Shown: positions 1-3,000 of the stretch, piece after piece | How positions within the stretch are numbered: the first letter of the stretch is position 1 | How the letters are laid out: every line of letters starts with the position of its first letter | Position numbers: made by a program | Source: a virus | Lineage: Duplodnaviria; Heunggongvirae; Uroviricota; Caudoviricetes | Direction: 5' to 3' (one strand) | Virus record (IMG/VR): IMGVR_UViG_2690316318_000012 | Span: 1-4,064 of that record | DNA: 4,064 bases

Positions 1-3000
1 GATGGCGCGCCGTTCCGCTACAGCTTCAGCGCCCTGAAGGACCGCCATAATGCCGAAAAAAAAAAACCGCAGTAATGTGGTAACGGCTGGGAGACGGCAA
101 CAGAGCTTGTGGAGGACACGCAGGCCATTGCCCGTTACGGTCGTAACGTCACGAAGATGGATGCCTTTGGCTGTACCAGCCGGGGGCAGGCACACCGCGC
201 CGGGCTGTGGCTGATTAAAACGGAGCTGCTGGAAACGCAGACCGTGGACTTCAGCGTGGGTGCTGAAGGGCTTCGCCATGTACCGGGCGATGTCATTGAA
301 ATCTGCGATGATGACTATGCCGGTATCAGCACCGGCGGGCGCGTGCTGGCGGTGAACAGCCAGACCCGGACGCTGACGCTCGACCGTGAAATCACGCTGC
401 CATCCTCCGGTACCACGCTGATAAGCCTGGTTGACGGAAGTGGCAATCCGGTCAGCGTGGAGGTCCAGTCCGTCACCGACGGCGTGCAGGTGAAAGTGAG
501 CCGGGTTCCTGACGGCGTTGCAGAATACAGCGTGTGGGGGCTGAAGCTGCCGACGCTGCGCCAGCGCCTGTTCCGCTGTGTGAGTATCCGTGAGAACGAT
601 GACGGCACGTATGCCATCACTGCCGTGCAGCATGTACCGGAAAAAGAAGCCATCGTGGATAACGGGGCGCACTTTGACGGCGACCAGAGCGGCACGGTGA
701 ATGGTGTCACGCCGCCAGCGGTGCAGCACCTGACTGCCGAAGTCTCGGCAGACAGCGGGGAATATCAGGTGCTGGCGCGATGGGACACGCCGAAGGTGGT
801 GAAGGGCGTGAGCTTCCTGCTTCGCCTGACTGTGGCAGCAGACGACGGCAGTGAGCGGCTGGTCAGCACGGCCCGGACGACGGAAACCACATACCGCTTC
901 AGGCAACTGGCTCTGGGGCGTTACACGCTGACCGTCCGGGCGGTAAATGCGTGGGGACAGCAGGGCGACCCGGCGTCGGTATCGTTCAGGATTGCCGCAC
1001 CGGCAGCGCCGTCACAGATTGAGCTGACGCCGGGCTATTTTCAGATAACCGCCACGCCGCATCTTGCGGTTTATGACCCGACGGTACAGTTTGAGTTCTG
1101 GTTTTCGGAAAAGCGGATTGCCGATATCCGGCAGGTTGAAACCAGCGCGCGCTATCTTGGCACGGGGATGTACTGGATAGCCGCCAGTATCAATATTAAG
1201 CCGGGTTCTGATTACTACTTTTATATCCGTAGTGTGAACACCGTTGGCAAATCGGTATTCGTGGAGGCTGTCGGTCAGCCGAGTGATGATGCATCAGGCT
1301 ATCTGGATTTTTTCAAAGGAGAGATAGGGAAAACCCATCTGGCTCAGGAGCTGTGGACGCAGATTGATAACGGTCAGCTTGCACCTGACCTGGCTGAAAT
1401 CAGGACGTCCATTACGGATGTCAGCAATGAAATCACGCAGACCGTCAATAAGAAACTGGAAGACCAGAGTGCGGCAATTCAGCAGATACAGAAGGTTCAG
1501 GTTGATACAAATAATAACCTGAACAGCATGTGGGCTGTGAAGCTGCAGCAGATGCAGGACGGACGCCTTTATATCGCTGGTATCGGTGCCGGTATTGAGA
1601 ACACCCCCGACGGCATGCAGAGTCAGGTGCTGCTGGCGGCAGACAGGATTGCGATGATTAATCCTGCAAATGGCAACACAAGACCAATGTTTGTTGGTCA
1701 GGGCGATCAGATATTCATGAACGATGTGTTCCTGAAGCGTCTGACGGCCCCGACCATTACCAGCGGCGGCAATCCTCCGGCATTTTCCCTGACACCGGAC
1801 GGGCGGCTGACGGCGAAAAACGCTGATATCAGCGGTAACGTGAATGCGAACTCCGGGACGCTCAACAATGTCACGATAAGTGAGAACTGTACGATTAAGG
1901 GCATGCTGGAGGCGAATCAGGTCAGGGGAGACTTCGTTAAAACTGTATCAAAAGCCTTCCCGAAAAAAGTCGGCACGTGGGGGGATACGGAAACACCAGG
2001 CGGGACGGTTACAGTCACCATCAGCGATGACCATAAATTTGACCGCCAGATTATTATTCCGCCCATTATTTTTAATGGTATAGCGTATACCGATCCGGGA
2101 AGTGGTGATAATCCGGGAGGTACAAAGTACACGGGGTATGGTTTTGAGGTTCGCAAAAACGGCGTATTAATTGCATCCAGAGAAACTAAAGGGGCCATTC
2201 CCGGTAGTTACAGTGCGGTTATTGATATGCCGAGTGGGCGAGGTAGCGTCACTCTGGAGTTTAAGATTTTCCAGAAAGGGAATCAGGGGGCAGGCAATAT
2301 CACCGACTGTACGGTGATTGTGACCAAAAAAGCGGCTTCCGGCATCAGTATCCGTTGAAATATTTATAACCCGATAACGGGCGCCAGAAATGGCGCCTTT
2401 TTTATTTGTGGAGTGAGTATGGCAGTAAAGATTTCAGGTGTGCTGAAAGATGGTGCAGGTAAGCCGATACAAAACTGCACCATTCAGCTAAAGGCCAGGC
2501 GCAACAGTACCACGGTGGTGGTGAACACGGTGGCCTCAGAAAATCCGGATGACGCCGGGCGTTACACAATGGACGTCGAGTATGGTCAGTACAGCGTCAT
2601 TCTGTTGGTGGAGGGATTTCCGCCGTCACATGCCGGGACCATCACCGTGTATGAAGATTCTCAGCCGGGTACGCTGAATGATTTTCTCGGTGCCATGACG
2701 GAGGAGGATGCCCGGCCGGAGGCACTGCGCCGTTTTGAACTGATGGTGGAAGAGGCAGCGCGTCACGCTGAGGAGGCGAAGAAGAATGCCGGAGAGGCAG
2801 AGACGTCAGCGAGGAATGCGGGTATATCAGCCGGCCAGGCGGAAAAGAGTGCAGTAAATGCTGAGACTTCTGCAGGGGATGCATCGGAGTCAGCCCGGCA
2901 GGCGACGGAAAGTGCAGCCTCTGCAAAGAAGTCAGAGGATGCGTCCTCGTTCTCGGCTTCTGCGGCCGCTCAAAAAGCCAGTGAGTCATCACAAAGTGCA

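Follow-up and report, generated by a model that had tools for sequence, protein, structure and literature searches.

How was the distal part of the J gene of an Escherichia albertii prophage put together, and which receptor would its product recognise? The question is raised by a stretch of DNA of 4,064 nucleotides (nt), IMG/VR record IMGVR_UViG_2690316318_000012, hereafter called the window. It is the entire 4,064-bp contig CYCK01000080.1 of the draft E. albertii assembly GCA_001286085.1, and it begins with the 3' two thirds of a lambda-type J gene. A sequence-only reading of the window had proposed that the distal half of J is a single swapped receptor-binding module, and that the phage targets a receptor other than LamB. 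The analysis presented here shows that the distal part of J is a four-block mosaic with respect to lambda J, in which two variable modules, a helical shaft and a receptor-binding domain, assort independently on either side of a conserved block. The receptor-binding domain belongs to the class of that of phage 434, which uses OmpC (PMC11101478).

Block structure and independent assortment in J

The left end of the contig lies inside J, and the N-terminal 380 codons of the gene are off the contig. Translation and protein alignment show that frame 1 (nt 1-2358) is colinear with lambda J codons 381-1132. The frame runs from nt 1 and is broken by a TAA at 73-75, where the sequence-only reading had it run from 109. 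The Pfam matches, every one of them above the curated cut-offs, follow the order Phage-tail_3, Ig_J, Ig_J_second, Phage_Tail_Tip and Ig_GpJ_C. This is the domain order of a lambda-type J: the hub, two immunoglobulin (Ig)-like or fibronectin type III (FNIII)-like domains, the tail-tip fibre and a C-terminal Ig-like receptor domain. The parts of J are listed here with domain names taken from a cryo-electron microscopy study of the lambda tail tip (PMC11101478).

1-2358, plus strand: lambda-type J (tip attachment protein, central tail fibre), 3' two thirds, in frame 1, from translation, alignment to lambda J and Pfam order
688-1314, plus strand: two Ig/FNIII-like J domains with about 96% identity to lambda, Ig_J at 688-1002 and Ig_J_second at 1006-1314, from Pfam and the identity profile
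1310-1650, plus strand: first variable module, comprising the alpha-helical shaft together with the upper end of the fibre prism, from a lambda identity of 10-50% and insertions
1651-1890, plus strand: conserved block of the central straight fibre (beta prism), the linker, from a lambda identity of 87-100% in 30-residue windows
1891-2358, plus strand: second variable module, a receptor-binding domain of the phage 434 class, stop codon included, with the Pfam match Ig_GpJ_C at 1945-2352 (89 bits)

The identity to lambda J is far from uniform. In Blastn it is 91.4% over 1-1357 and 76.8% over 1527-1914, and the segments 1358-1526 and 1915-2358 cannot be aligned. The protein identity profile, taken in 30-residue windows, is at 87-100% up to nt ~1260, except for a replaced patch at 56-82. 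It falls to 10-20% at nt 1350-1480, where the window has 28 extra residues, comes back to 87-100% at nt 1666-1845, and is 20-50% from there to the end of J. The mosaicism that had been proposed is therefore real. The first part of the gene, up to nt ~1300 (the end of the hub and the two FNIII domains), had been called near-identical to lambda J; it is indeed lambda-like, but its identity is 91% in DNA and about 96% in amino acids. The quoted DNA string, GATACAAATAATAACCTGAACAGC, is found at 1504-1527, and both quoted peptides are in frame 1.

Base composition does not locate the junctions. A shift towards AT-rich sequence had been placed at about 1320, but the best single change point of the G+C content (GC) in the J frame is at nt 1035 (log-likelihood ratio of 17.2, with 0 of 500 codon shuffles as high). 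This position is at the boundary of FNIII-1 and FNIII-2, some 300 nt 5' of the point where the identity breaks, in sequence that is ~96% identical to lambda. The GC goes from ~0.62 to ~0.52 at this boundary in the window and in lambda J alike (nt ~2116-2190 of lambda J), and that of the shaft block is equal in the two genes (0.511 in lambda J, 0.508 in the window). Because lambda J drops at the homologous position, the GC shift was rejected as a marker of the swap; the drop is largely common to J genes. The last block alone is more AT-rich than its lambda counterpart (GC of 0.49 vs 0.556, and 0.50 vs 0.62 at third codon positions, GC3). The claim that the end of J is AT-richer still holds with respect to lambda, but not within the window, where the GC of 1891-2358 is not significantly different from that of 976-1890 (p = 0.23). 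The whole distal third of J genes, beyond the receptor domain alone, may differ from the hub in its compositional history.

The shaft allele of the window is 28 residues longer than those of lambda and phage 434, with insertions of 21 and 7 residues which amount to four heptads. Its DNA is 96-99% identical to that of cdtI, Lambda_4B5 and 640R1. This alpha-helical shaft is the segment that had been described as coiled-coil-like; it is no part of the receptor-binding module. The score of the heptad register is moderate; the a/d pattern holds by eye, with one stutter, and the AlphaFold2 (AF2) model shows one long helix, of low confidence, over query residues 28-75 of the shaft.

The beta prism (1651-1890) is largely invariant across the six J variants compared, and it is likely that this conserved stretch serves as a crossover linker for recombination between the two variable modules. 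Engineered gpJ chimeras have been joined within the same stretch, at lambda residue 964, and were functional (PMC11338833). The natural J variants combine the modules in different ways.

Phage 434 J: short, lambda-type shaft; receptor domain of the 434 class
J of cdtI, of CP039404 and of the window: long shaft; receptor domain of the 434 class
Lambda_4B5 J: long shaft; receptor domain of the A8 class (350 bits to PDB 9WCA)
640R1 J: long shaft; receptor domain of a further class, to which the engineered 1A2 also seems to belong, by a weak match to a 1A2 sequence damaged by optical character recognition

The same is seen in 25 database proteins. A domain of the 434 class (at least 90% identity) follows three classes of shaft, which are ~97-100%, 57-69% and 30-36% identical to the shaft of the window, and a shaft of the window type (at least 96%) also precedes receptor domains of just 41-55% identity. 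This independent assortment makes the shaft and the receptor domain two exchangeable modules. A single swapped "distal half", as first proposed, is rejected, since the two parts combine independently and the conserved linker lies between them. In Lambda_4B5 (2593-3361 of the compared locus), an IS4 transposase gene is present immediately 3' of J, at the usual site of lom or stf.

Hundreds of lambdoid phages and prophages match the window. The best complete phage is cdtI (93% DNA identity) and the best closed chromosome is that of E. coli 377323_2f (CP039404, 95.3%). Their J proteins (YP_001272531 and WP_062859999, respectively) share the full combination of modules with the J of the window, and each is 96% identical to it over 749 aligned residues. 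Their receptor domains differ from that of the window by 9-12 substitutions, and neither gene has the patch or the stop codon. The cdtI genome keeps lom, whereas CP039404 shares the lom-less junction between J and stf that is seen in the window. The distal part of J has thus very likely been built by homologous recombination from blocks which circulate among lambdoid prophages.

The receptor-binding domain and its probable receptor

The last 158 residues of J were compared by tblastn with 50,697 phage records. The distribution of identities is bimodal: the identity is 90-95% in 74 records and below 46% in 169, with none between. The domain is 91% identical to that of phage 434, 94% to those of mEp332, ev243 and 2851, and 38% to that of lambda. 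The high-identity class also holds cdtI, mEp460 and many long-tailed Shiga toxin (Stx) phages. Relative to 434, the domain of the window has no indels and has the same pattern of loop lengths. With this high identity and this loop pattern, the J of the window ends in a receptor-binding domain of the 434 class. The J of phage 434 (UMO75286), the classical h434 host-range determinant which directs the phage to OmpC, also has the same C-terminus, but its shaft is only ~30% identical to that of the window.

The J of lambda (P03749; PDB 8IYK, 8XCK and 8XCJ), which binds LamB, shares its domain order and fold family with the J of the window, but the last ~155 codons are clearly different, as had been stated for the C-terminus. 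The domain has neither a close identity to lambda J 985-1132 nor the lengths of the lambda loops L1-L4, and does not belong to the LamB-binding class of lambda. The indels between the two domains are at lambda positions 1011/12, 1051, 1078, 1099 and 1109-14. Maddamsetti et al. proposed hot spots of indels in the receptor-contact loops of J at 1012, 1048-49, 1077-78 and 1107 (PMC6646904); four of the five indel sites match them, and all four hot spots are hit.

The closest solved structures, from sequence and fold matches, are the fibre of A8 gpJ (PDB 9WCA; 9WCB with OmpC), which is the best match, and that of lambda. The A8 domain is nevertheless of a different class: the domain of the window gives 112 bits with the C-terminus of A8 gpJ, with several indels, compared to 350 bits for Lambda_4B5, a true member of the A8 class, whose domain is 42% identical to that of the window. 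The engineered 1A2 gpJ, a graft which retargets to OmpC as A8 does, also has a receptor domain of a class unlike that of the window. No domain of the 434 class was found among the solved structures.

Lambda that carries the J of phage 434 in place of its own is redirected to OmpC (PMC11101478). Maddamsetti et al. described J residues 960-1132 as a specificity module that evolves independently (PMC6646904), and natural J C-termini grafted at lambda residue 964 retarget lambda particles to OmpC (PMC11338833). Because the domain of the window is of the 434 class and the J of 434 transfers the use of OmpC, a receptor other than LamB is expected, in agreement with the sequence-only reading. By this homology the receptor is very probably not LamB as in lambda, and it is probably OmpC.

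In lambda, the three receptor domains spread when the receptor is bound. The prism is twisted as a result and the helical shaft flips over, so that the FNIII domains are released and the tip opens (PMC11101478). The J of the window combines a lambda-like hub end and two lambda-like FNIII/Ig domains with a longer alternative allele of the shaft, the conserved beta prism having probably acted as the crossover linker. By analogy with lambda, the trimer of the receptor domain would reach into a trimeric porin, most likely OmpC, with its four distal loops. The binding would then be signalled along the prism to the helical shaft, and this would open the tail tip.

A less likely reading is that the shaft might itself be a functional variable; it assorts independently of the receptor domain and lies in a segment whose refolding opens the tail tip of lambda. 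The long shaft could tune the length of the fibre or the threshold of the trigger for hosts with different surface layers. As a separate idea, the substitutions that are private to the window could adapt the domain to a porin allele of E. albertii. The present data speak neither for nor against these two ideas.

The replaced patch and the competing explanations

The beginning of the J frame carries a feature that bears on whether this copy of the gene works.

56-82, plus strand: replaced patch of 27 nt, which preserves the length and consists of 11 A's followed by CCGCAGTAATGTGGT, from alignment to lambda and CP039404

The first 55 nt of the window are identical to other copies of J, and the patch begins immediately after them; it creates the in-frame TAA at 73-75, so the J frame is interrupted. 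Its 15-mer is a second copy of the J sequence that is normally found 11-25 nt upstream of window position 1, off the contig. The 27-nt patch is absent from the complete genomes of E. coli and has no exact match in genome_contigs or viral_contigs; one match in a metagenome was rejected, as it is in an unrelated AT-rich contig. The NCBI gene calls break J up into an end of 24 residues and a product of 749 residues, the latter deposited under the name of an E. albertii prophage J. The 749-codon frame 3' of the patch is fully open and conserved, so any inactivation of J would be recent. Either a genuine templated mutation of a prophage in decay or an artefact of assembly or gap filling may underlie the patch. 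J as deposited may thus be broken or misassembled, and the phage may be a defective prophage.

Several observations weigh against the view that J is a recombinant with working, OmpC-directed receptor domains. The GC gives no independent support to the junctions. The AF2 monomer model of the last 352 residues, made with an alignment of 26 sequences, has a mean pLDDT (predicted local distance difference test) of 50, with ~73 in the receptor domain. The model is poor overall; the intertwined trimeric prism is unsuited to modelling as a monomer, and the Foldseek matches to the lambda and A8 fibres restate the sequence homology; the structure prediction that had been suggested as a check does return these two fibres as top fold matches, but adds little to what the sequence already says. 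As to the receptor, the domain differs from that of 434 at 12 of ~155 positions, and 7 of these substitutions are private to the allele of the window. A few substitutions are sufficient for lambda to gain a new porin (PMC6646904), and the A8 and 1A2 classes of J differ in the OmpC alleles that they accept (PMC11338833). Finally, the TAA may prevent the J protein from being made.

The mosaic could have arisen without any exchange of modules, the distal blocks having diverged in place from a lambda-like ancestor under rapid diversifying selection on the host range. Substitutions and indels are known to concentrate in the loops of J that contact the receptor (PMC6646904), and in domains of the 434 type 10 of the 17 variable columns are at most 5 columns away from loop indels. 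However, this clustering of substitutions near the loop hot spots within the 434 class is not significant (p = 0.11), the classes of identity are discrete (90-95% vs <46%), the GC3 of the receptor domain is unlike that of lambda, and the linker between the modules stays 87-100% identical. Three different shaft alleles precede one and the same receptor domain, and the converse is also seen. Divergence in place is thus very improbable. The combination could also be a chimera, in which a short draft contig fuses two lambdoid prophages of one genome via the conserved linker. Indeed, the 4,064-bp contig starts inside a repeated gene, and the odd patch of 27 nt is close to its left end, exactly after 55 nt. 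But the same architecture is present, at full length and with 96% protein identity in each case, in the complete cdtI genome and in the closed CP039404 chromosome, and the lom-less junction is 100% identical in the latter. Because these two genomes carry all of it, the combination of modules is natural, and an error of assembly at this level is very improbable. Recombination between circulating blocks remains the preferred origin of the distal part of J.

Two further explanations accept this origin and concern its meaning. The domain may be an allele of the 434 class whose receptor has shifted to OmpF, to another porin or to an allele of E. albertii OmpC that K-12 lacks. The 7 private substitutions, which were judged against three other domains of the 434 class, include replacements of N by D at the two positions that align with lambda 1012 and 1051, and the A8 and 1A2 classes discriminate between OmpC alleles. 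On the other hand, the domain is 91-95% identical to those of phages which plate on K-12 (434, and the PhiR and mEp records with K-12 hosts) and its indel pattern is that of 434, which makes such a shift unlikely. The other explanation is a relic: the modules would be genuine, but J would be a pseudogene of a defective prophage, truncated at codon 25 of the window, and the domain, not expressed, would have no meaning for the host range. The in-frame TAA inside the replaced patch, the split gene call and the deletion of lom favour it. However, the frame beyond the patch is fully open and conserved, and the patch itself may be an artefact, considering that it keeps the length, follows a 55-mer and re-uses a 15-mer from off the contig. 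The relic is a serious possibility, even if we do not consider it the probable one.

Neighbouring genes and significance

The rest of the window contains the junction 3' of J and two tail fibre genes.

2379-2408, plus strand: hairpin and T run resembling an intrinsic terminator, 3' of J, from alignment of the junction to 434 and CP039404
2419-3732, plus strand: stf (side tail fibre), which encodes collagen-like Gly-X-Y repeats, from Pfam phage_tail_N, Collagen and Phage_fiber_C and a match to the start of lambda stf; context, outside the J mosaic
3734-4048, plus strand: small protein with a tail-fibre C-terminal domain, from Pfam Phage_fiber_C; its 434 homologue carries the annotation "tail fibre assembly chaperone"

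The gene stf begins at 2419, directly 3' of J, and the upstream side of J is off the contig; CP039404, the closest relative, has the full order H-M-L-K-I-J. The region between J and stf (2359-2418) contains no lom, and the ribosome-binding region of stf directly follows the hairpin and T run. The arrangement would fit a loss of lom by deletion between the two terminators which flank it in 434 and lambda.

The Gly-X-Y repeats of stf (~3200-3500) have a GC of 0.68-0.70 and a strong AT skew. They give rise to long spurious open reading frames on the minus strand, at 2642-3418 and 3109-3894, similar in kind to frames that are entered as hypothetical proteins in cdtI and lambda (orf206b). The last ~100 nt of the window (3962-4064) diverge from CP039404 and match a prophage of the enteropathogenic E. 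coli type, near the nleH/nleG effector genes. The window probably begins and ends at boundaries of repeats in the assembly graph.

The finding is correct, but the phenomenon and the class were already known: the modularity of J has been published, its portability is used in engineering, and a Pfam family exists for the domain. The combination of modules is itself present in published genomes, such as that of cdtI. In practice, GC is a poor guide to junctions in J. The analysis assigns a prophage J from a draft genome of E. albertii to the 434 (OmpC-type) host-range class, which goes little beyond annotation, and it gives explicit coordinates for the two-module distal fibre of J, on which published evolutionary and engineering work already relies.

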